Positions 1 to 10,259 of a stretch of DNA of 64,000 nt are shown in pieces (position 1 is the first letter of the stretch; each line of letters starts with the position of its first letter). The stretch spans positions 8,642 to 72,641 of the forward strand of contig CAYSQA010000002.1 in NCBI GenBank assembly GCA_964433225.1, in the 5' to 3' direction. The DNA comes from an uncultured Pseudomonadales bacterium (GTDB lineage Bacteria > Patescibacteriota > Microgenomatia > UBA1400 > PJMF01). The notes under the pieces were generated by a model. The model ran no database searches and had not been told where the DNA came from. It saw only the letters and a list, made by a program, of their open reading frames with translations. The translations under genes and the position numbers were made by a program.

Positions 1-218
1 AGAATATATGCGGTCTCATTATGAAGATTGAAAGGCAGCGCATGATTGAGAAAAAAAGCTTGGAGCAAAAAGAAGTTCAAACTCATATAAACCAAGTTTG
101 TCACAAGGAGGATTGCTGATATTTTAAAGACAAAGAGCACCAAACTTTCACGGATAGGCTCGTTGATGTATTGACTCTCAGATTCTTCTGTCTGAGTTTG
201 GATAGTGGGTCTCGTCAT
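1..218 (-). CDS. Partial ORF running off the window start; hypothetical membrane protein (N-terminus MTRPTIQTQTEE...)
   Basis: ATG at 218-216 on the minus strand stays open to position 1. The product has a hydrophobic stretch (FKISAILLVTNLVYMSLNFFLL). It is not in the ORF track because it is truncated. No family recognised. Confidence 0.25.
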   Translation of the reverse strand, partial: MTRPTIQTQTEESESQYINEPIRESLVLFVFKISAILLVTNLVYMSLNFFLLQAFFLNHALPFNLHNETAYI

Positions 219-238
219 ATAATTCTACTTGGTAATTT

Positions 239-430
239 TCAATGATGGGAAGAATTCTTTTTTGTGGTTTGATCATGATCACCATGTCCCAAAAAAAGAT
301 GAATTAAAGGACATGCAAAAATGATAAGTCCAAACACACCCAAACTTTGTACCTGAGGAATAAAAAGGTACGCCAACACAACGATACCCGCTAAAACTAA
401 GCACAGAACTAAGCGATTACCATGTTTCAT
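239..430 (-). CDS. Small two-TM His-rich membrane protein, DUF2933-like
   Basis: 63 aa with two hydrophobic helices, a CPLIHLFLGHGDHDQ motif and a His-rich C-terminus. This resembles the small metal-operon DUF2933 family; the name is from memory. It is the last gene of the copper island. Confidence 0.5.
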   Translation of the reverse strand: MKHGNRLVLCLVLAGIVVLAYLFIPQVQSLGVFGLIIFACPLIHLFLGHGDHDQTTKKNSSHH

Positions 431-501
431 ATGTCCTCCTATCTGTGAACTATATAAAAAGAAACATGAAGCTAGGATGAAATGAGTGTACTAACAAGCT
501 G

Positions 502-2109
502 TTAGATAACTTTAAATTGGCTCATCATTCCCGACTCCATATGCTCAGGAATATGGCAGTGCACCATCCAGTCTCCAGGGTTTGAGATATCAAGTAAAAT
601 ATCAACAGTCTCACCTCTACCAACCAAAACTGTATCTTTCCACACCAAGTTGTCGTTCGGTACTCCGTTTTTTGCCAGTACCAAAAATCTTTGACCATGG
701 AAGTGAATCGGGTGCTGCATCGGATGCATGGAGTTAGGATCATTGAAAATACTGATTTTAACTTTATCTCCCTGTTCAAACTGCCAATCGATATCCATAT
801 TCTCTTTGTTGGTCTGTGAATCAACAAGCTTCCACTTAAGCGTCTTTGTGGTTGACCCTTGATTCATCATGCTCATGGTATCTTCCCATTCAATGGGTCC
901 TTCATCATCGCCCATTTGCATAGCACTGTTACTCATCATCTGCCCATTGCCCATCATGTGCATATCGTGACCACCTCCGCTTGTAGAGCCTTCACTACTA
1001 GAACTGCCCATAACCAACGATAGAGTAATTTTCTTGTCCGGAGTTTTGTCAATAAACGAGCGGTACTGTGCCAGCTCTTGTACCTTGTCATTGTTAACTC
1101 TGGAAACCGGCAGGTAGGAAGTAGTCACAGTGCTAGGTTCAACGGCTATTGTGCCCAATGAATATGATTTATCAGGAGTTTTGTTGGCTATTGTGAAATC
1201 ACCAGACTGCGTAAAGTAGACTTCCACCACATATCGCTCTGAGGGTCCAATAGTGACTGATTCGACCCATTCTTCTTTCTCATATTTGCCGCTATCCCCA
1301 CCAACCAATTTCATACGAGCACTGGGGATAGTGAAGTTAAACACTCTAGTGTTGGCGGCATTAGTGATATAAAACCGTACCCGCTCACCCTGTTTTATAG
1401 GTAGTTTAAAGTCGCTCTCGCCATTTATGAGCATCGTGTTGCCAAACCTCCCCATAAGCGTGTGATTGACGGTCTCTTTATCAAATGAGGCAATCTGTCC
1501 GTTTTCCAGCAGAATATCATCAAGAAATAGTGCTTCTTCACGATCCACCTCAACCCAATAGTCTGGCTGTTCAGGAGTTACGATAAAGTTGCCGTACAAC
1601 CCCAGCTCCTGAGCATAATCCTCACGGATATGCGGGTGGTACCAATACACACCTTCATTAGGGAATTTCAGTTGATAGGTGAAGGATTGACCAGGTTTAA
1701 TAGGTTTCTGGGTAACATCTGGCACTCCATCAAATTTATTATCAACCCTGACTCCGTGTGAGTGGAGGGTAGTGTCAACATCAGTGTTATTGGTAAAGTT
1801 GACGGTTATTTGAGCTCCTTTCGAAACTTTAATCAAAGTCCCAGGGATAGAGCCGTTATACGCCAGCATTTTCACTTCCTGACCGTTGATTGTTTTTTTA
1901 ACAATCTCTGCCGATAAATTATAGGTGTCTCCGTCTTTTAGAGAAACAGTTTCTTGTGGTTTCGCGGCAGGAAGATTTGCAGGTGAAGAAACAAAAGAAC
2001 CACCTTCATTCTTATCCAGTTGTAAAAATTTGTTACTAAAAAATAAAAACACTCCCAAAATTAGGATCACAATCAACACTATTACAGAAAAAAATTGTTT
2101 GCTTTTCAT
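502..2109 (-). CDS. Multicopper oxidase (CueO/PcoA-like cuprous oxidase) with Met-rich insert
   Basis: Multicopper-oxidase copper ligand motifs are present: HSHG, WYHPHIRE, HPIHFHG and HCHIPEHMESGMM. A Met-rich segment follows (GHDMHMMGNGQMMSNSAMQMGDDEG...MSMMNQG). There is an N-terminal TM/signal. Confidence 0.85.
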   Translation of the reverse strand: MKSKQFFSVIVLIVILILGVFLFFSNKFLQLDKNEGGSFVSSPANLPAAKPQETVSLKDGDTYNLSAEIVKKTINGQEVKMLAYNGSIPGTLIKVSKGAQITVNFTNNTDVDTTLHSHGVRVDNKFDGVPDVTQKPIKPGQSFTYQLKFPNEGVYWYHPHIREDYAQELGLYGNFIVTPEQPDYWVEVDREEALFLDDILLENGQIASFDKETVNHTLMGRFGNTMLINGESDFKLPIKQGERVRFYITNAANTRVFNFTIPSARMKLVGGDSGKYEKEEWVESVTIGPSERYVVEVYFTQSGDFTIANKTPDKSYSLGTIAVEPSTVTTSYLPVSRVNNDKVQELAQYRSFIDKTPDKKITLSLVMGSSSSEGSTSGGGHDMHMMGNGQMMSNSAMQMGDDEGPIEWEDTMSMMNQGSTTKTLKWKLVDSQTNKENMDIDWQFEQGDKVKISIFNDPNSMHPMQHPIHFHGQRFLVLAKNGVPNDNLVWKDTVLVGRGETVDILLDISNPGDWMVHCHIPEHMESGMMSQFKVI

Positions 2110-2138
2110 ATATCATTTACAAACTCCCTTTAATTATC

Positions 2139-2771
2139 TCACCTAGCTAGCTTTTCCGGTGATTGGTTTTTATATGTCTCAATATATTTTTGAATTAGTG
2201 CTTTATCAACAGAATCAAGCCGCATCATTTTTCCCCAGGAAGCCACTACAACTTTACTATCGTTTCCTGAGCGAGGAGATACTACTGTGCTTTGCGAGTT
2301 TTGCTTGCCGATCTCTTCCAGAGCTTCAATATCTTCTTCTGAAATATCTTTGTATGAGATCCAAATGCCTCCATGTTCCAGATTGTGAACGCCTGCTTTG
2401 TCATCTATTTCCTCATTATAAATACCCCAATTTTTAGCTGTTGCTAAGTGTCCACCAGAAGTAGGTGGATTTGTTTGGTACTCAACTGCCGTATCGGCTG
2501 CTATGTGATCCCTACCTTCTATTTCAAACTCCTCAACTTTTCCTTCCAAAGTAATGGTTTCTATTTGCTGTTCAAATTCAATCTGCTCGGGAGACTTCTT
2601 GGTCAATTGGATGGATCCAAAAATGCCTGCAATCAAAATAATGACAACCAAACTCCAGTTGCGAGCCTTCTTCAACAATTTTGCTTTCTTCTCTCGTTCC
2701 TTCCGTAGGGTTTTGAGGTTTTTCTTACGCTCATGCTTAGGTAATTGATTCCATTCTTCTGGATAATCCAT
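2139..2771 (-). CDS. Membrane-anchored DUF3105-like protein
   Basis: Lys-rich N-terminus, one TM and a conserved PPTSGGH...HNLEHGG core. This recalls DUF3105; the family name is from memory. Confidence 0.5.
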   Translation of the reverse strand: MDYPEEWNQLPKHERKKNLKTLRKEREKKAKLLKKARNWSLVVIILIAGIFGSIQLTKKSPEQIEFEQQIETITLEGKVEEFEIEGRDHIAADTAVEYQTNPPTSGGHLATAKNWGIYNEEIDDKAGVHNLEHGGIWISYKDISEEDIEALEEIGKQNSQSTVVSPRSGNDSKVVVASWGKMMRLDSVDKALIQKYIETYKNQSPEKLAR

Positions 2772-2829
2772 GGTTTCCTTTCAAATTAGTTCCCAGGTTT
2801 CCTTTCAAATTAGTTCCCATATATACTGT

Positions 2830-3579
2830 TCAAACTGCCAAAATATTCAAATTAAAAAACTGAAGCAACCACATTGATAATAATTCGACCTTACCTAATA
2901 TAAGGAGCGCACCTATCAGTAAAATAACAATTCCCGCAAGTAAATTTAGATATCTACCCAACCTTTTGGTGATCACTAGTTTGCTTGAGATTTTTTCAAA
3001 AAATAAAGCTACAACCAAAAATGGGATACCTAACCCAATGCCGTATGCAAGTAGTAGGCTCATTCCTTGCCAAACTGTTTCGGTTTGAGCTGCCCAAAAT
3101 AAAATTACCGCCAGTACAGGACCAATACATGGAGTCCAGGCAAAACCAAATGTTAAGCCAACAAAAAAAGAATTGAGTTTGCGGAATTTAGTTGGTGATA
3201 CAGATAGTCGTAATTTTCTTTCTTGGTACAAAAAATGAGGTTTGATGATGTTTAACATAAAAAGGCCCATGATAATGAACAAAAAGCCACCTAGTTTCCT
3301 AATAAGAGGCTTATATATCCCCAAAAACCTTCCCAGAGTATTAGTGGTAGCGCCTAGTAAAACAAATACAAAAATAAAGCCAATCGTGAAGATCAAGCCA
3401 TTAATAAATATATCTCGTTTAAAAACTTTCTTGTGCGAATCGTCTATTGTCCTAGAAGTAGCAATGCCAGATAGATAAGCAATATACGTTGGGACCAAGG
3501 GCAGCAAACACGAGGCAAAAAAGGTAATGACACCTCCAATAAAAGCTATTAATAAGTTTACCTGTGAACCGTCAAACAT
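2830..3579 (-). CDS. ccdA: CcdA/DsbD-family thiol-disulfide electron transporter
   Basis: Polytopic membrane protein with the two conserved Cys motifs CLLPLVP and TPCIGPVL typical of CcdA/DsbD transmembrane domains. Confidence 0.8.
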   Translation of the reverse strand: MFDGSQVNLLIAFIGGVITFFASCLLPLVPTYIAYLSGIATSRTIDDSHKKVFKRDIFINGLIFTIGFIFVFVLLGATTNTLGRFLGIYKPLIRKLGGFLFIIMGLFMLNIIKPHFLYQERKLRLSVSPTKFRKLNSFFVGLTFGFAWTPCIGPVLAVILFWAAQTETVWQGMSLLLAYGIGLGIPFLVVALFFEKISSKLVITKRLGRYLNLLAGIVILLIGALLILGKVELLSMWLLQFFNLNILAV

Positions 3580-3647
3580 ATTTTCAATTACCTAATGACC
3601 CACAGGTGATAGGAAGTCTATCACCTGTGCTTCAATTTTTATTCGGA

Positions 3648-4427
3648 CTACAGGTATTTTTCGATAGCCTGTTTTACTTGTTCATATGGTAGGGCTCCTG
3701 GAATCATTTCTTGAACACCATCTTCTGTGACAATAAAGGTGCCAGGAGTGCCGCTTACCCCAGCTGCGCTCCCCTTTGCAAACTGGTCTTTAACTTTTTC
3801 TGCCATTTCATCACTATCTAGACATTTTTGCACAGCATTTTCGTTTGCACCTGCTTCAGCACCAAGTGGAGCCAAGTCTGATAGAGGAAACCCTGTTCCA
3901 TTTGAACTAGTTCTTTCAAAGTAGAGATCTACAAAATTCCAATAGGCTTCATTGCCAGCTAATTTACCAACACATTCCGAAGCTTCAGCGGCTTTTTGTG
4001 CATTTGCATGGAAGCTGAGTGGGTAATGTCGGTAAACCCAAGCCACTTGATCACCATACTCATCCATAACTTGTTGCATGGTGGGATGAAAACGTTGACA
4101 GAAAGGGCACTCAAAGTCTGAATATTCAACTAAAGTGACCTTTGCGTTTTTTGCTCCACGTATGTATTCATCTTTACCAACTTCTGGTAAGTTTCCAAGC
4201 TGATCTGCTGTCGGACCTGATGGGGCAGCAGGTGCAGCGGCCGTAGGAGCGCCACCTGCGTTATTGGTGGTACCAACAGTGTTACCACTTCTCAATATTT
4301 GGTTTTCTGTCCACAGCGAGCCACCAAAAAACCCAACGCCTAAAAATACAAAGCTAAGAGCAACTACTAAAAAATTTTGGTTGAGAAAGTTAAGTAATGC
4401 GCTAAATGAATAATCTGATTGTGACAT
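3648..4427 (-). CDS. Membrane-anchored thioredoxin-fold (DsbA-like) thiol:disulfide oxidoreductase
   Basis: N-terminal TM, Ala/Pro-rich linker and a thioredoxin fold with active site FECPFCQRF (CPFC). Confidence 0.75.
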   Translation of the reverse strand: MSQSDYSFSALLNFLNQNFLVVALSFVFLGVGFFGGSLWTENQILRSGNTVGTTNNAGGAPTAAAPAAPSGPTADQLGNLPEVGKDEYIRGAKNAKVTLVEYSDFECPFCQRFHPTMQQVMDEYGDQVAWVYRHYPLSFHANAQKAAEASECVGKLAGNEAYWNFVDLYFERTSSNGTGFPLSDLAPLGAEAGANENAVQKCLDSDEMAEKVKDQFAKGSAAGVSGTPGTFIVTEDGVQEMIPGALPYEQVKQAIEKYL

Positions 4428-4455
4428 AAGAAAGTTCTCCGATTAGTAATAATCA

Positions 4456-4469
4456 CCTACAACTGTAGG
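4456..4469. promoter_or_regulatory. Inverted repeat CCTACA-AC-TGTAGG (cop-box/bla-operator-like, TACAnnTGTA core) upstream of dsbA-like gene
   Basis: Perfect 6-2-6 inverted repeat in the 59-bp gap between the BlaR1-like stop and the DsbA-like start. A second copy is at 5845-5858. Confidence 0.55.
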
Positions 4470-4486
4470 AGATAAAATGTGTCTTG

Positions 4487-5497
4487 TCAATTAGAAAAAG
4501 TTGAAGTTGAGAAGGAAGCAGACACAAGAGGGGAGAAATTATGAACGCTGTCAGTTTCATATCCTGAGCAACCAGTTGTTTGACAACCAGTTCCCTCACT
4601 ACACACACCTCCAGCCATAGAAGCATAATTTGCTGTTGCTTTATTTGGTTCGACAAAAGCTATTCCCAACATAATCATTATGCTGAGAATGCTTGCCGCA
4701 AGTGGTTTAAGACTGATCCACTCAATATGATGTTTGTCCCCAACCAAAGACTCCACCCGTTTTTCTATTGGTGAAGTTGCAAAATTAGGAACTGCTTTGC
4801 TCGTATACTGTAAATGTAGCGCAAGTGACTCGCACAAATAATGTCTAGTTTTCTGCTTCTCAATCACAAAAGCATCTGCCATTAACTCAAACTCTGTTTG
4901 CAATTGTCGAGCCAAGTAGTCAATCAGGGGTACAAAAAATAACATAGAACTAACCAAGCGAGATATTAGCAACCAAAAAACATGGAAACTTTTCAAGTGA
5001 TACAGCTCATGGAGAATTACTGCCTCTAGTTGTTTTTCTGTGAGCTTGTTCACTAAGGCCTTTGAAACCACTATCTTGGGTTTGAGTAGGCCTACTGTGT
5101 AGGCAACCAACCTAGTATCGTAAATAACTGAAATCATCCCGTCTTCAAGTTGATGCTTTTCGACAATTCGTCCAAGTTTTTTTGGAATATGATCATTTGT
5201 TTTAAGTTGATTCAAACGTCTATGTTCCGATAAAAACATTTTTAGTCGCCATACAGTCATGCTTGTGCCAATAAATGCGATAAGTAATACAAAAGAAGAC
5301 ACCACACCATTGGGATTAAAATGAACGTGTTGATTGATATTCTTTAGAATTTCGCCACAAGTAGTTATAAATAGTTGGGGATGCAGAGTGGCCTTGGTTG
5401 CTATTAGATACGTTCCCAGCACCAAGACCAAGCCAGAAGCTATAGTAAATATCATTGATAAACTAATCTTAATTTTCATTATTTTGTAATTTTTCAA
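4487..5497 (-). CDS. BlaR1/MecR1-like M56 zinc-metalloprotease signal transducer with Cys-rich C-terminal tail (no beta-lactam sensor domain)
   Basis: Four predicted TM segments, an HEXXH motif (ILHELYHLKSFH) in the loop and a short C-terminus, GGVCSEGTGCQTTGCSGYETD. It overlaps the upstream repressor gene. The true start may be an internal Met (MKIKISL). Confidence 0.7.
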   Translation of the reverse strand: MKNYKIMKIKISLSMIFTIASGLVLVLGTYLIATKATLHPQLFITTCGEILKNINQHVHFNPNGVVSSFVLLIAFIGTSMTVWRLKMFLSEHRRLNQLKTNDHIPKKLGRIVEKHQLEDGMISVIYDTRLVAYTVGLLKPKIVVSKALVNKLTEKQLEAVILHELYHLKSFHVFWLLISRLVSSMLFFVPLIDYLARQLQTEFELMADAFVIEKQKTRHYLCESLALHLQYTSKAVPNFATSPIEKRVESLVGDKHHIEWISLKPLAASILSIMIMLGIAFVEPNKATANYASMAGGVCSEGTGCQTTGCSGYETDSVHNFSPLVSASFSTSTFSN

Positions 5498-5879
5498 TTA
5501 ATTTTTGACGAGTTTGGTCAGAAATATTACCTAATCCATCAACAAAAGCGATTAGGGCTTCTTCACCAAATTGATTGGTAAAACTCCCCATAGTCTGGTT
5601 TATTAAAGAAGAAAGAATGCTTTTTTGCTCTACAGCTGGTTTATATATATGCGTTTTGCCTTCCAAACTTCTCTCGAGCAATCTCTTGTCTACCAATCGA
5701 GTCATAATAGTTTGAACAGTATTGTAGGCAATTTTCCGACTTTGAGTTAGGCACTCAAGCACATCCCGAGTGGTGCAGGTTTTCTTTCTCCAAACGAAAC
5801 TCATCACTTCTTGCTCCAGTGGTCCTAGTGAAACATTTCTCATACCTACAAGTGTAGGATTTAACATTAAAAATTTCAA
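5469..5879 (-). CDS. BlaI/MecI/CopY-family winged-helix transcriptional repressor
   Basis: LGPLEQEVMSFVW...TTRDVLECL...IAYNTVQTIMTRLVDKRLLER matches the penicillinase-repressor family. It has no C-terminal CxC...CxC copper site. The likely true start is MRNVSLGP at 5843, directly downstream of the 5845-5858 operator. Confidence 0.8.
   Translation of the reverse strand: MKFLMLNPTLVGMRNVSLGPLEQEVMSFVWRKKTCTTRDVLECLTQSRKIAYNTVQTIMTRLVDKRLLERSLEGKTHIYKPAVEQKSILSSLINQTMGSFTNQFGEEALIAFVDGLGNISDQTRQKLIEKLQNNEN
5845..5858. promoter_or_regulatory. Inverted repeat CCTACA-AG-TGTAGG (cop-box-like) at the 5' end of the BlaI/CopY-like gene
   Basis: Perfect 6-2-6 inverted repeat. It lies 2 nt upstream of the preferred ATG at 5843, or inside the N-terminal extension if 5879 is the start. 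Confidence 0.5.
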
Positions 5880-5892
5880 TCAGAAGAAATCA

Positions 5893-7263
5893 TTACTTAA
5901 CTTCAACTACAGTCATCATTCCTGCTTCAGCATGTTCCAAGGCATGGCAGTGACTCGCCCATACACCCTCATCAAGAGGCATCAAGCCGATATCGACTGT
6001 TTCTTTTGATTTGATAAGTACCGTGTCACGCAAATACGGTTCATCCACTTGCTGACCATTTCGAGCTAACACTTTGAAAAATTGACCATGTAAGTGCATT
6101 GGGTGGAGCCGAGCCGACTCATTTGTAAAGCGGATCACATTATACTCACCTTTTTTTAAGGTAATTGGATCGTAATCAGGGTAGACTTTGTCATTGATTG
6201 TCCATTCGATGCCAAACTGGCCGCCTCTACGGGCATTCAATCGATACTCTTTATCAATAATTCTTTTAGTGTCACTTGTCCAGTCAGGAAATACTGTTGC
6301 TGCTGGTGGTTGGATATCTTTCACCGCGTCAACATTTCCATCAATGGTGATTGTGGCTAGTGTGTTAGATTGACGAGTGAATGTATCCCGTATTACATAC
6401 GGTTTTGAGCGTGAAAGTTGGGGAACAAAAACATCAACATCAATTCGATTACCCGGAGCTAGTTCAAATCCCTGAGCTGTAAAAGGCTCTTTTGCCAGCA
6501 TGCCATCAACGGCAAAGCCCTGTACTTCCAAATCTCCAAAATCAAGCTTGTAAACGCGAGCGTTCGATGTGTTTACTAATCTCAGTCTTAATCTCTCGCC
6601 AGCTTTTGCTTGTAATTCATAGTTTAGTTGTCCATTTACCGTAATAACATTACCCCAACGTCCATCATGCATCAAATCATGACCTGTATTGAATCGTTCG
6701 TCTAGTTGACCATTTTCAGTCAGCCGCCAATCATCAAGCACTAAGACTTGATCTTGGTCATAAGTAGGCTCTTTCGAATCTTCAACCACAATCACTCCAT
6801 ACAACCCACGTTCTACCTGCTCACTACCTCGCACATGAGGGTGGTACCAAAAGGTCCCCGCATCTTTGGGAGTGAACTCATACGTAAATTGTTCTCCTGG
6901 TTGAATTGGTTCCTGAGTTACACCTGGCACTCCATCCATAGCATTAGGAACCCTGATGCCGTGAAAATGGATTGTCGTGGGCTGGAGCAAATTGTTGGTA
7001 AAATTTATTTTGAGTGTCTCACCTTTGGTAATTCGAATTTCTGGTCCAGGTACTTGATCGTTGTAACTCCATACATTGAAAGAGGAGTTTTGCCCAAGTG
7101 AAATAGTAGTTTTTTGCGCTATTAGGTCAACTTCTTTTATTTCCCCAGTAGCTTGAATTGATTCGGGATATGGTAACTTGGAGTTGAGTGGCGACCAAAA
7201 ACGCAGTCCCACCAGAATGGCAGCAAAGACCAAGCTAATGAAAAAATATTTCCTGTTCGCCAT
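5893..7263 (-). CDS. Multicopper oxidase (second paralog, no Met-rich insert)
   Basis: HFHG, WYHPHVRG, HPMHLHG and HCHALEHAEAGMM motifs. The start was chosen at MANRKYFF (ATG 7263-7261), preceded by GGAGG and 1 nt after the copB TAG stop. The ORF-track start at 7308 is an upstream extension. Confidence 0.85.
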   Translation of the reverse strand: MANRKYFFISLVFAAILVGLRFWSPLNSKLPYPESIQATGEIKEVDLIAQKTTISLGQNSSFNVWSYNDQVPGPEIRITKGETLKINFTNNLLQPTTIHFHGIRVPNAMDGVPGVTQEPIQPGEQFTYEFTPKDAGTFWYHPHVRGSEQVERGLYGVIVVEDSKEPTYDQDQVLVLDDWRLTENGQLDERFNTGHDLMHDGRWGNVITVNGQLNYELQAKAGERLRLRLVNTSNARVYKLDFGDLEVQGFAVDGMLAKEPFTAQGFELAPGNRIDVDVFVPQLSRSKPYVIRDTFTRQSNTLATITIDGNVDAVKDIQPPAATVFPDWTSDTKRIIDKEYRLNARRGGQFGIEWTINDKVYPDYDPITLKKGEYNVIRFTNESARLHPMHLHGQFFKVLARNGQQVDEPYLRDTVLIKSKETVDIGLMPLDEGVWASHCHALEHAEAGMMTVVEVK

Positions 7264-7264
7264 A

Positions 7265-9397
7265 CTACGCCTCCACTGCCAGCTTGGCATTTCGCAGAGA
7301 CATAGCATTAACTACAACAATCACCGAGGAGAGACTCATTAACAAGGCTCCTACTGCTGGACTCAGACGAAATCCAAAAGGAATAAACAATCCTGCTGCA
7401 GCTGGAATGGCGACGATGTTATAGCCAAGTGCCCACCATAAATTTTGCAGCATTTTGGCATAGACTTTTCTGGAAAGAACAATCAACCGTACGATGTGCT
7501 GAGGATTGGACTGCGTCAAGATAATGTCGCCAGCTTCAACCGCCACATCAGTACCTGCCCCAATGGCTACACCCGCATTAGCTTGGGTTAAGGCAGGAGC
7601 ATCATTAACCCCATCACCAGCCATGACTACTACATTGCCAGCATCTTGTAGCTCCCGAATATACTTATACTTATCCTCTGGCAAAACTTCAGCAAATACC
7701 GTGTCTATGCCCAGTTGTTTAGCAATTGGCTCTGCAGCTGACTTTGTGTCACCAGTCAGCATCGCAACCTTAACTCCCAACTGGTGTAGCTGCGCCACAG
7801 CCTGCTTGGACTCTTCTTTCACTTGATCACTCAGGGCAATAACACCTAAAACTTTATTTTTATCTGCCACAAAAACTGGTGTTTTGCCTTCTGTAGAAAG
7901 TTTCTTGTATACCTCAGCTACATTTTCATCCCAAACCTTTCGTTCTTCCATTAAGCGTTTGTTGCCCAGGAAATATTGTTTTTCGTTATACGTTCCTTCC
8001 ATACCTTTACCAGCTAAGTTCTTGATTTTGGAAGCCTCAGTCAATGTGATCTTCTCTTTTTGCAAGTGCTGAACAATTGCCATACCAATCACATGAGAAG
8101 AATGCGTTTCAATACTACCTGCTATCTGAAGTAATTGTTTTTCTGTACCTGAAAAAACAGTGATACCAGTTACACCAAACTCACCTTTAGTTAGAGTGCC
8201 TGTCTTATCGAAAACAACATAATCAGCTGCTTTGACGACTTCTATTTTTCCCATATCCTTGATAAACACCCCATTTTTGACTGCCAAACGAGTAGCAATA
8301 GTAGAGACAGTGGGAATAGCTAATCCAAGGGCATGAGGGCAGGCAATTACTAAAACCGTGATAGCCAGTGTGGCAGCAAACACAACCGACTCACCAACTA
8401 GTATTGACCATATCAGAAGCGATGCGATAGCAACTCCAAGTGCAGTAAAAGTCAACCATTTTGCAGCACGGTCAGCTAGCTTTTGTGCTGATGGTTTGGT
8501 TTGTTTAGCTTCAGAAATAAGGCTTTGAATTTGACCGATTGTTGAAGATTCACCAACTCGCATTAGTTTAACTTCAACAGAACCATCAATACTTATGGCA
8601 CCAGCTACCACTTCACTTCCTGGTTTTTTTTCGACAGGTTTTGATTCTCCAGTAATATGTGCTTCATTGAAGTTACCACTGCCCTTTAGTATTTCACCAT
8701 CAGCAGGGACTTTTTCACCCGGTTTAACAATAACGACATCGCCTTCTTTCAACGAAGTCAGTTCAACTTCTGTAACACCATTCTTGGTTTTAAGGTGAGC
8801 TTCCTTTGGTAGCAATTTAGCAACTTCTTGCAACGCATCTCCTGCCGCAGTCGATGATTTGGCTTCCAAAAAGTGTCCAAAAAGTAGCACCCAAATCAAA
8901 GTTGCTATTTCCAAGTAAAACTCCATTTCAATCTGAGGCAAGAAAGTTGCCGCAGCAGAAAAGAGATATCCTGAACCAACAGCCAAAGAAACCAAGGTCA
9001 TCATGCCATACTGCTTCATTTGAATCTCATGACGAGCGTGTTCAAAGAAAACTAAACCAAAATAGAAAATGATTGAAGCAATGGCAAATTCTAGATATGA
9101 GCGGAGAGCGAAATCCGGCATACCAAGTAACGTAACCGCTGGTTCAGAAAAAATTGCTAGTGGTACGAGTAGGGCAGTGACAATAAAAAAACGTTTTAGA
9201 AAGTCAGCTGCCGCTTCAGGACTAGCCATCATACTAGCGTGATCATGCTCAACATGGCCATTGTCCATCTCACTTTTTTTCACCAAATACATACCTCCAC
9301 ACTTAGGACACTTGCCTGGCTTTTTCTCCATGATCTCTGGATGCATTGGACAAGTGTAATAGTCTTGGTGGTCAGTGTGTAGGTGGTTGTGTTTCAT
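7265..9397 (-). CDS. copB: Copper-translocating P1B-type ATPase, CopB-like (CPH motif, His-rich N-terminus)
   Basis: His-rich N-terminus MKHNHLHTDHQDYYTCPMHPE...CPKCGGM. TM motif IACPHALG (CPH). Phosphorylation motif DKTGTLT and hinge motif GDGVNDAPAL. Confidence 0.9.
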   Translation of the reverse strand: MKHNHLHTDHQDYYTCPMHPEIMEKKPGKCPKCGGMYLVKKSEMDNGHVEHDHASMMASPEAAADFLKRFFIVTALLVPLAIFSEPAVTLLGMPDFALRSYLEFAIASIIFYFGLVFFEHARHEIQMKQYGMMTLVSLAVGSGYLFSAAATFLPQIEMEFYLEIATLIWVLLFGHFLEAKSSTAAGDALQEVAKLLPKEAHLKTKNGVTEVELTSLKEGDVVIVKPGEKVPADGEILKGSGNFNEAHITGESKPVEKKPGSEVVAGAISIDGSVEVKLMRVGESSTIGQIQSLISEAKQTKPSAQKLADRAAKWLTFTALGVAIASLLIWSILVGESVVFAATLAITVLVIACPHALGLAIPTVSTIATRLAVKNGVFIKDMGKIEVVKAADYVVFDKTGTLTKGEFGVTGITVFSGTEKQLLQIAGSIETHSSHVIGMAIVQHLQKEKITLTEASKIKNLAGKGMEGTYNEKQYFLGNKRLMEERKVWDENVAEVYKKLSTEGKTPVFVADKNKVLGVIALSDQVKEESKQAVAQLHQLGVKVAMLTGDTKSAAEPIAKQLGIDTVFAEVLPEDKYKYIRELQDAGNVVVMAGDGVNDAPALTQANAGVAIGAGTDVAVEAGDIILTQSNPQHIVRLIVLSRKVYAKMLQNLWWALGYNIVAIPAAAGLFIPFGFRLSPAVGALLMSLSSVIVVVNAMSLRNAKLAVEA

Positions 9398-9416
9398 AAC
9401 ATTGTTTGCAGTTCAT

Positions 9417-10007
9417 TTACTTTTTATGAGCTTGTTTAAGAAAGAAATATGTTCCAGAGGTAAAGAATGCAATGGCAACAATCCGAGTTGCTGTCCCAAG
9501 GAAACTATATGATCCATATCCCATCATTGAACCAAAGCCCATCATATTAGTCGAGCCGCTAAGACTTCTATTGTTGGCGTAGCCCATCATGCCTCTGCCC
9601 ATCATTCCAGGACCATAGTTTGTATTGGTACCGTAACCTAAGTAAGCTTGTCCCATAGTAATATGCATTTGACGCAAAGAGTCCGAACCTTCACCGCCCA
9701 TCATCCTATCCATTGCCTCATGTGCTTCTCCCGGATGCTGAAGTTCCATTACAGCATCGCCTAATCGCTCCCATTCATCATCACTGACTTTTGACAAGTC
9801 AAGTTCTTGTACTGTCTGTACATTTTGACTGCTGAGTACATCTTGCAAAACTACTTCTACAGACTCGGCGTGTTCTTCCTTTGCACTTACTTCAGTTTCA
9901 TCCCCATCGAATCCCATCATCGAACCCATCTGTGCCTGCGTCTTAGGAACTACAAAACCAAGCGAAAGAAATGTAAGTAATAATAGGGTGGTAACAGTTT
10001 TTTTCAT
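9417..10007 (-). CDS. Secreted Met/Gly-rich protein with C-terminal membrane anchor; putative Cu(I)-binding
   Basis: Signal peptide, then repeated MMG, GMMG and MMGY motifs and a C-terminal hydrophobic helix. AAAGGAG SD. First gene of the copper island. Confidence 0.6.
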   Translation of the reverse strand: MKKTVTTLLLLTFLSLGFVVPKTQAQMGSMMGFDGDETEVSAKEEHAESVEVVLQDVLSSQNVQTVQELDLSKVSDDEWERLGDAVMELQHPGEAHEAMDRMMGGEGSDSLRQMHITMGQAYLGYGTNTNYGPGMMGRGMMGYANNRSLSGSTNMMGFGSMMGYGSYSFLGTATRIVAIAFFTSGTYFFLKQAHKK

Positions 10008-10174
10008 ACAAACTCCTTTTATGAACTAAGTTAATCATAAAGCAGATTAAGAGAAGATGAAATCGCACTTACACGGCTGTTAAACCAACATTTGTTGTTT
10101 TCAGCGTTTTTTAGCAAGCCCCATCAACCCATTTAGTCATAATGGACGGGTCTATCAGAACTTTTCGGTACTTG

Positions 10175-10259
10175 CGGAGGCAATGGGATTTGAACCCATG
10201 AACCGGAGATCCGGTCAGGTTTAGCAAACCTGTGCAATTGGCCACTATGCGATGCCTCC
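10175..10259 (-). tRNA. tRNA-Ser (anticodon GCT), long variable arm
   Basis: Manual fold: acceptor GGAGGCA/TGCCTCC, anticodon stem CAGGT/ACCTG, loop TTGCTAA, variable-arm stem CCGGA/TCCGG, T-loop TTCAAAT. Confidence 0.85.

Follow-up and report, generated by a model that had tools for sequence, protein, structure and literature searches.

The gene at 9417..10007 on the minus strand of a 64,000-nucleotide (nt) stretch of contig CAYSQA010000002.1 (the window) encodes a 196-amino-acid (aa) precursor which, on balance, appears to bind Cu(I)/Ag(I) at the outer face of the membrane, to which it is tethered, as an accessory to a copper-efflux P-type ATPase. It carries a conserved His/Met domain and belongs to a large unnamed family, the genes of which lie beside copper pumps in both bacteria and archaea. 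An earlier reading of the window, made from its letters and a list of open reading frames (ORFs) (the sequence-only reading), described the product as a secreted Met/Gly-rich protein leading a copper operon. The ORF, whose strand had been left unstated, is real, and the probable signal peptide, the C-terminal hydrophobic anchor, the place in the operon and the lack of homology to named families were all borne out. The proposal of an envelope copper protein stands in so far as the protein is predicted to be extracytoplasmic and anchored and its linkage to copper is strong, but the MMG repeats on which that proposal was built lie mostly in a disordered, variable linker and are not the conserved element. 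The main feature, a folded domain at residues 47-128, had been passed over.

Architecture and conservation of the His/Met protein

The centre of the protein is a four-helix His/Met domain (residues 47-128; 9624..9869, on the minus strand as are all parts of the gene given below) with helices at residues 50-60, 76-90, 94-102 and 109-123. In the AlphaFold2 (AF2) model of the full-length protein, made with 81 relatives as input, this domain has a predicted local distance difference test (pLDDT) score above 90, and when modelled alone, with 56 sequences, it reaches a pLDDT of 93.4 and a predicted template modelling score (pTM) of 0.83. The modelled core is all-alpha. Across 229 aligned cores, G83, M87, H96, M99, D100, M102, M103, G104, G105, S108, L111 and H115 are conserved at 100% (after rounding), and E106 and M118 (both 98%), G107 (96%), H91 (94%) and P92 (93%) are near-invariant. 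The signature of the core can be written GDAVMExxHPGxxHExMDxMMGGEGSxxLxxxHIxMGxxYLG, and the window protein carries every one of its invariant and near-invariant positions. Among them are two HxxM motifs, H96-E-A-M99 and H115-I-T-M118, the four ligand residues of which are kept in 98-100% of the family, together with M99-x-x-M102-M103. Since M102-M103-G104 is invariant, this MMG belongs to the fold and is not a 'repeat'.

Positions 71 and 125 are occupied by Leu and Tyr here and by Cys and Cys in 62% of the relatives. The covariation of the two is near-perfect, with 142 sequences having both Cys, 85 having neither and 2 being mixed, which fits a disulfide and so suggests that the domain is extracytoplasmic, and which also supports the predicted fold.

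The domain is set within an architecture of signal, core, linker, transmembrane (TM) helix and tail that is conserved in the family. The precursor opens with MKK, 17 hydrophobic residues and TQA|Q, and hydropathy predicts a Sec signal peptide at residues 1-25 (9933..10007). AF2 places a helix at residues 2-18 of this region, Ala25, at position -1 of the putative cleavage site, is kept in at least 90% of relatives, and an N-terminal hydrophobic segment is present in 209 of 234 relatives; the precursor is probably exported by this signal and cleaved after Ala25. The mature protein would then start with a disordered acidic segment (residues 26-46; 9870..9932; pLDDT below 50 for 26-43) that begins QMGSMMG and holds the first MMG, the GSMMG being conserved in the closer subfamily. 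Following the core there is a disordered Met/Gly-rich linker (residues 129-167; 9507..9623; pLDDT below 50 for 129-165), a C-terminal transmembrane anchor (residues 168-190; 9438..9506) seen both in hydropathy and as an AF2 helix at 168-195, and a basic tail, KQAHKK (residues 191-196; 9420..9437), which is taken to be cytoplasmic from the positive-inside rule and is followed by the stop codon (9417-9419). A C-terminal hydrophobic segment with a Kyte-Doolittle mean above 1.4 was found in 224 of the 234 relatives, and basic residues after the helix are family-wide. Approximately 10-15% of relatives (13 of the 81 scanned) have a SHOCT domain (PF09851) in place of the short tail. From the positive-inside rule and the covarying Cys pair of the relatives, the domain would face the outside of the membrane and the tail the inside. 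Residue 175 (9483-9485), at the start of the C-terminal TM helix, is Arg here and Trp in loci L008 and L009 and in most aligned relatives, and this Arg lowers the TM hydropathy score of the window protein, which is approximately 1.0 against a family median of 2.3.

The protein contains 18 Met (9.2%), 24 Gly (12.2%) and 8 MG dipeptides. The 'about 15' MMG, GMMG and MMGY motifs previously reported are an overcount, as there are six MMG, at residues 30, 102, 135, 140, 155 and 161, of which two are in GMMG, two in MMGY and two in MMGF. Six nevertheless greatly exceeds the chance expectation, as 100,000 composition-preserving shuffles gave a mean of 0.19 and none reached six. The four motifs from residue 135 onwards lie in the linker, which in the family spans 40-51 aa and has median contents of 15.6% Met and 27.3% Gly; Met and Gly together make up at least 30% of it in 208 of 229 members, its sequence is variable and there are one to six MMG per member. 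Comparison with the 90%-identical copy in locus L008 gave 40 synonymous and 14 nonsynonymous codon differences, with T117A as the sole amino-acid change between residues 46 and 126 and eight changes in the tail half. Judged by these differences, the gene is under purifying selection, and the alignments indicate that the family signature is the conserved folded domain, while the Met/Gly linker keeps its composition only.

These data bear on the sponge suggested by the sequence-only reading, taken here as a disordered Met-rich one, in which the MMG and GMMG stretches would bind Cu(I)/Ag(I) non-specifically, as in SilE and PcoE, and the helical domain would be a mere spacer or folding unit. Such a role seems unlikely. 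It is consistent with the Met/Gly composition kept in linkers across the family and with the excess of MMG, and stand-alone Met/Gly-TM-SHOCT mini-proteins at four loci suggest that the module can act alone. However, it puts its weight on the least conserved part of the protein, as the strongest selection is on the folded domain (columns at 98-100%, and the single substitution against eight in the comparison with L008) and the sequence, length and MMG number of the linker all vary. Furthermore, the core is confidently modelled as folded, the protein is anchored and not soluble, and there is no homology to SilE, so that a purely disordered, SilE-type sponge does not describe it.

SilE itself is soluble and intrinsically disordered until metal binds. 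The window protein is like SilE and PcoE in being exported and His/Met-rich, in having HxxM-type motifs on helical segments and in being encoded in a mobile copper/silver resistance cluster, but it differs in its folded four-helix core and membrane anchor, and in a range that covers the candidate phyla radiation (CPR), DPANN archaea and Spirochaetota as opposed to Enterobacteria. There is a local look-alike between SHQRMMGSQ in SilE and AMDRMMGGEGS in the window protein, which is a motif resemblance only. Homology to SilE was rejected, as hhalign with the family alignment gave a probability of 0.4% and BLASTP an E-value of 4.9 (the comparison sequence was a 100% match to annotated silE), and no SilE/PcoE NCBIfam model was matched at E-values up to 1.

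The stand-alone mini-proteins are 73-101 aa long and are encoded near family genes at L018 2198-2419, L067 6459-6764, L078 6456-6761 and L082 3708-3974, directly downstream of the family gene in L067 and L078. Each begins with a short segment, which is rich in Met and Gly in three of them, and continues with a single TM helix and a SHOCT domain, an arrangement that resembles the C-terminal half of the SHOCT-bearing members. The linker-TM(-SHOCT) half of the family is similar to them, but the window protein has no SHOCT, and SHOCT does not span the His/Met core. SHOCT itself has no assigned function (PMC3581485), and a silver-induced SHOCT membrane protein in Haloferax (PMC10694973) was considered too indirect to be used here.

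The family and its linkage to copper pumps

In the window the family gene is the first of a minus-strand copper operon, followed after 19 nt by a P1B copper ATPase of the CPH (CopB/P1B-3-like) type (7265..9397, minus strand) and then by a multicopper oxidase (5893..7308, minus strand), the third gene of a 4.3-kb cassette, which overlaps the ATPase gene by 44 nt. The ATPase has a His-rich N-terminus and an HMBD, matches the Pfam families E1-E2_ATPase, Hydrolase and HMBD, and scores 556 bits against TIGR01511 (copper P-type ATPase), for which the cutoff is 397; its CPH motif, read from the translation, is ACPHAL. The oxidase matches Pfam Cu-oxidase_3, Cu-oxidase_2 and Cu-oxidase, with weak matches below cutoff to CueO/CopA-type NCBIfam models. 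A ribosome-binding site, AAAGGAG (10013..10019, minus strand), was read from the sequence 5 nt before the ATG of the family gene. No CopY/BlaI operator (TACAnnTGTA) was found upstream of this gene, and there was no significant promoter call ahead of it.

To determine how far this arrangement is shared, 80 loci from other species were compared by clustering the ORFs within 4 kb of the family gene; 47 of the loci have full flanks and 33 have incomplete flanks. The commonest neighbour was a P1B ATPase, present in 34 of the 47 fully flanked loci and in 15 of the 33 others. By tblastn an ATPase was detected in 50 of the 80 loci; in 31 of these it follows the family gene on the same strand, often only tens of bases away. 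CPH-type pumps numbered 24 and CPC-type pumps 17, both YNxxxxP and MxxSS were present in 38, and the Zn-type HEGxT motif was present in none; by these motifs, all of the typed neighbour pumps are copper-type. Other recurrent neighbours were CsoR-type copper repressors (16 loci), DUF302 (12-13), YHS (12) and DUF411/CopG (9). In precomputed annotations the gene order is kept in three relatives of 45-51% identity, and in one relative a bare cassette of three genes (DUF302, the family gene and the ATPase) is set among housekeeping genes, with a tRNA synthetase/TruB region on one side and a tRNA methyltransferase on the other. As a rough estimate, in a genome of approximately a thousand genes with one or two pumps, chance would bring a gene this close to a pump in no more than a few per cent of cases. 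From these neighbourhoods, the link of the family to copper handling is strong and is conserved well beyond the window.

DUF1573 proteins with a conserved SCMCT motif were also seen within 4 kb in 47 of the 80 loci; they are of approximately 166 aa and are often present in more than one copy (e.g. L024 4404-4904). These could be another uncharacterised envelope metal protein.

The neighbourhoods also bear on whether the protein is instead a dedicated partner of the multicopper oxidase, delivering Cu(I) either as substrate, in a PcoC/PcoA-like manner, or as maturation copper, in a CutF/CutO-like manner. Both kinds of delivery have precedents, in that Cu(I)-PcoC is oxidised by PcoA. The maturation of CutO, for its part, depends on CopA and CutF (PMC8456105). 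In the window and in loci L001-L003, L008 and L037 the operon continues from the ATPase into an oxidase, and as the window oxidase (MCO1, at 5893-7308) has no Met-rich insert of its own in its translation, a Met-rich partner acting in trans is conceivable. However, oxidases occur in only 4 of the 80 loci against 50-56 with an ATPase, and the minimal conserved cassette of DUF302, the His/Met gene and the ATPase has no oxidase, which makes a dedicated oxidase partner improbable. With so few loci carrying an oxidase, this enzyme, which the sequence-only reading had suggested might be fed by the protein, is not the conserved partner.

The family is large. A word-indexed search returned 176 relatives, all unnamed or 'hypothetical', with best E-values down to 1e-113, and an exhaustive profile search returned 1,187 clusters at 50% identity, 862 of them with E-values of 1e-10 or below; among the matches listed, lengths were 105-273 aa and mostly 170-230 aa. 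Relatives were found in 275 genomes of a species-genome scan. The family is concentrated in ultra-small prokaryotes, among them numerous lineages of Patescibacteria/CPR and, of the DPANN archaea, Woese-, Aenigmat-, Nano-, Micr- and Diapherotrites-type members; it occurs as well in Spirochaetota and a few Bacteriovoracaceae, Syntrophaceae and other delta-type metagenome-assembled genomes (MAGs). Several MAG records with close relatives (including L008, L009, L012 and L013) are titled 'uncultured Pseudomonadales' or 'Gammaproteobacteria', and as the nearest named relatives are Pacebacteria, WWE3 and other Patescibacteria, such titles are probably placeholders or mislabels. For the window itself, the low G+C, the gene content and the nearest relatives suggest a CPR host.

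Searches of Pfam, NCBIfam and PDB sequences with the single protein, the 81 aligned relatives and the family profile returned nothing for the core and SHOCT in some tails only, and Foldseek of the model against the PDB gave no match at an E-value of 1e-3 or below. The only names in public sources were 'hypothetical protein' and 'uncharacterized membrane protein', a full-text literature search with the core motif strings had no match, and nothing on the family was found in the literature on DUF302, copper and Met-rich proteins, on copper in Patescibacteria or on SHOCT. None of 258 family proteins has the core fused to a known metal domain, the fusions being SHOCT tails and one to DUF5676. This last module, with two TM helices, is fused to the C-terminus of the family protein in L027 (5911-6732) and is a separate adjoining gene in L085 (6375-6641). 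A divergent paralogue of 242 aa with a SHOCT domain is encoded at L009 4367-5095, 0.9 kb upstream of the family gene. Both the Cys pair and the HExMD...MMG...MHxxMG skeleton are retained in it, the HPG turn is absent, and hhalign gives its match to the core a probability of 98.4%. The count of 1,187 clusters therefore understates the extent of the superfamily.

The copper island and a second copper system

Positions 1-10,000 of the window form a single minus-strand copper island with a G+C content of 0.40-0.44, against 0.32-0.36 in the next 10 kb, and the island is bounded by a tRNA-Ser(GCT) gene (10174-10259). A 4.3-kb block at 5893-10196 shares 93% nucleotide identity with 5812-10115 of L008, the flanks being unrelated, which indicates that the His/Met gene, the pump and the oxidase move as a unit. 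The edge of this block lies 23 nt inside the 3' end of the tRNA-Ser(GCT) gene, and L008 holds a fragment of the tRNA and no intact copy; in its sequence, this fragment at the block edge resembles a scar left at an integration site. A search of the window for another copy of the tRNA-Ser 3' fragment, which would mark the opposite end of the island, found none.

Beyond the cassette, the island encodes a BlaI-like repressor, an M56 protease, a thioredoxin/DsbA-like protein (3648-4427), a DsbD-like protein (2830-3579), a DUF3105 protein (2139-2771) and a second multicopper oxidase (502-2109). The second oxidase is CueO-like in having a Met-rich insert at approximately 840-990, GGGHDMHMMGNGQMMSNSAMQMG...TMSMMNQG, which contains MMG. 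In L001 and L037 an equal set of genes is present in another order, beside relaxase and TraG-like genes. The BlaI/CopY-like repressor (BlaI-M56 region, 4487-5879) is without the C-terminal Cys motif of true CopY, and the adjoining BlaR1-like M56 protease has a Cys-rich C-terminal tail, GGVCSEGTGCQTTGCSG. Together, repressor and protease could act as a copper switch that works by proteolysis. The TACAnnTGTA boxes at 4458-4467 and 5847-5856 each lie over the -10 element of a minus-strand promoter-like site, one before the thioredoxin gene and one before blaI-M56; two such boxes in 64 kb is a count not above chance.

Given these neighbours, a role as sensor or regulator was also considered, whereby the outward domain senses envelope copper and signals through the TM helix (with SHOCT in some members) to the ATPase or to M56/BlaI. 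A cytoplasmic SHOCT domain in some members and the presence of a BlaI-like repressor and M56 protease in the window island and in several relatives agree with such signalling. Most members, the window protein included, nevertheless have only a cytoplasmic tail of 6-12 residues, BlaI and M56 are found in only 5-6 of the 80 loci, the M56 protein has a candidate sensor of its own in its Cys-rich tail, and no CopY operator-like box precedes the His/Met gene. We therefore consider a sensory role to be very improbable.

A second copper system is present at 59856-63965. Its regulator is of the ArsR type, with a YHS/TRASH-like C-terminal fusion, and is accompanied by a CPC-type CopA that has an HMA domain (60367-62583), by a polytopic membrane protein (62597-63712) and by a CopZ-like HMA protein.

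Known copper acceptors and a proposed mechanism

The role favoured here, that of an anchored Cu(I)/Ag(I)-binding accessory to the pump, would involve the following steps. The precursor would be exported by Sec and cleaved after Ala25, and the single C-terminal helix would hold the mature protein at the outer face of the cytoplasmic membrane, with the basic tail inside. Helices 2-4 of the domain, which is of approximately 80 residues, would present three His, five or six Met and several Asp/Glu, making up one or two sites at which thioether and imidazole groups hold Cu(I) or Ag(I). That this conserved His3/Met5-6 cluster, with its Asp/Glu, binds Cu(I) or Ag(I) is suggested by a ligand set like that of CusF (PMC9302797). 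The Met/Gly linker and the N-terminal GSMMG may serve as a flexible tether whose weak, transient Met sites gather Cu(I) near the membrane, by analogy with CueO. The protein would then take Cu(I) as the pump releases it, limiting re-entry or membrane damage, and would let the metal go to the medium or, where a multicopper oxidase is present as here, to that enzyme for oxidation to Cu(II).

The family is genomically coupled to copper-efflux pumps and repressors, and co-transcription directly upstream of an efflux ATPase points to a protein that takes the Cu(I) released by the pump, a hand-off that is proposed by analogy. The sequence-only reading suggested that the protein may feed the adjacent ATPase, which reverses the direction: with the domain outside and a P1B pump of the efflux type, the protein can only receive metal from the pump or bind external metal.

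The proposed role is that of CusF, an extracytoplasmic His/Met acceptor of the Cu(I) that a P1B ATPase expels. In structure CusF is a small, soluble beta-barrel with a His/Met/Met (plus Trp) Cu(I) site, whereas the window protein is modelled as all-alpha, is membrane-tethered and has no match to Pfam CusF. Transfer of Cu(I) from CopA to CusF is mediated by Met residues, as PMC9302797 states in citing Padilla-Benavides 2014, and CusF, with a site formed by His36, Met47 and Met49, delivers its metal to CusCBA (PMC9302797). No CusCBA-type genes were seen in the neighbourhoods of the family loci.

There is also a likeness to CopL, a surface lipoprotein encoded with a P1B-3 pump in copXL/copBL of Staphylococcus aureus and proposed to be an extracellular copper binder that prevents re-uptake (PMC10233261). 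Both are surface-tethered accessories beside a His-rich CPH (P1B-3) ATPase, and sometimes an oxidase, on an acquired element, and the window combines a core CPC CopA and CopZ with an acquired island just as staphylococci combine core copAZ with acquired P1B-3/CopL (PMC10233261). The window protein differs in having no match to the Pfam CopL domain, a C-terminal helix as anchor in place of a lipid (it has no Cys and therefore no lipobox) and a gene located before the pump and not after it. In CueO the Met-rich domain is reported to recruit Cu(I), and the flexible Met-rich segment of CueO-type oxidases, proposed to be a transient Cu(I)-recruiting antenna, resembles the linker (PMC11494321); there, however, the segment is an insert in an enzyme, and here it is part of a separate anchored protein with its own domain, whose conserved partner is the pump. 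Two further families were tried and rejected. For CopC/PcoC there was no Pfam CopC match and the model is all-alpha and not a beta-sandwich, and for the helical periplasmic metal-stress proteins of the CpxP/Spy/ZraP type (LTXXQ, Metal_resist), whose fold is a helical hairpin, there was no match to the family hidden Markov models.

Several observations weigh against the accessory role. There is no ATPase within 4 kb in 13 of the 47 fully flanked loci, and 14 of the 80 loci are without ATPase, DUF1573 or CsoR. The housekeeping-type CPC CopA of the window (60367-62583) has no family member beside it; as CopA functions without an adjoining member, the family protein would be an accessory and not an obligate subunit. 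Diderm Spirochaetota, Bacteriovoracaceae and delta-type MAGs also carry the family, so its role is not just to replace CusF in cells that lack an outer membrane. The invariant D84, D100 and E106 would, as residues, suit Cu(II), Zn(II) or another ion equally, and metal binding by the family, like the cleavage of the signal peptide and the topology of the protein, is inferred.

Some of these points could equally be expected of an envelope protein with no part in copper handling, whether for membrane stress, oxidant scavenging or structure, or of a binder of another ion such as Zn(II), that hitch-hikes with metal islands: the invariant carboxylates could hold harder ions, and the 14 loci have no recognised metal gene nearby. 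We give such a protein little probability. The linkage to copper pumps spans bacteria and archaea at 35-50% identity and in differing gene orders, which hitch-hiking would hardly explain, and the ligand set of His3/Met5-6 is characteristic of Cu(I)/Ag(I) sites, for example His36/Met47/Met49 of CusF (PMC9302797). If the family does not bind copper, its tight linkage to the pumps needs another explanation.

A more specific form of the accessory role is possible, and is put forward tentatively. The family may represent an undescribed metallochaperone fold, in which a flexible Met/Gly tether carries a four-helix His3/Met5-6 site for Cu(I)/Ag(I). Such a protein would dock at the exit of CopA/CopB-type ATPases and be the missing copper acceptor in CPR bacteria, DPANN archaea and some spirochaetes, all of them lineages without CusF, CopC and CopL, and it would spread with the pump as a mobile cassette. 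On the present model, the family has no fold relative, and its predicted task, the handling of Cu(I) outside the cytoplasm, is a familiar one that it would carry out with a structure of a new kind.

What becomes of copper once P1B ATPases have released it has been worked out for a few model systems only, namely CusF in E. coli and the proposals for CopL in staphylococci. Here a large unnamed family, present in at least 275 species genomes and in two domains of life, is genetically tied to copper pumps in lineages that are hard to culture and without known copper acceptors. Should Cu(I) binding be true of it, the family would be a new structural solution for envelope copper handling, and its compact His/Met site would lend itself to bioinorganic work. 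Annotation of copper-resistance islands in metagenomes, where its members are now listed as 'hypothetical protein', would improve as well.

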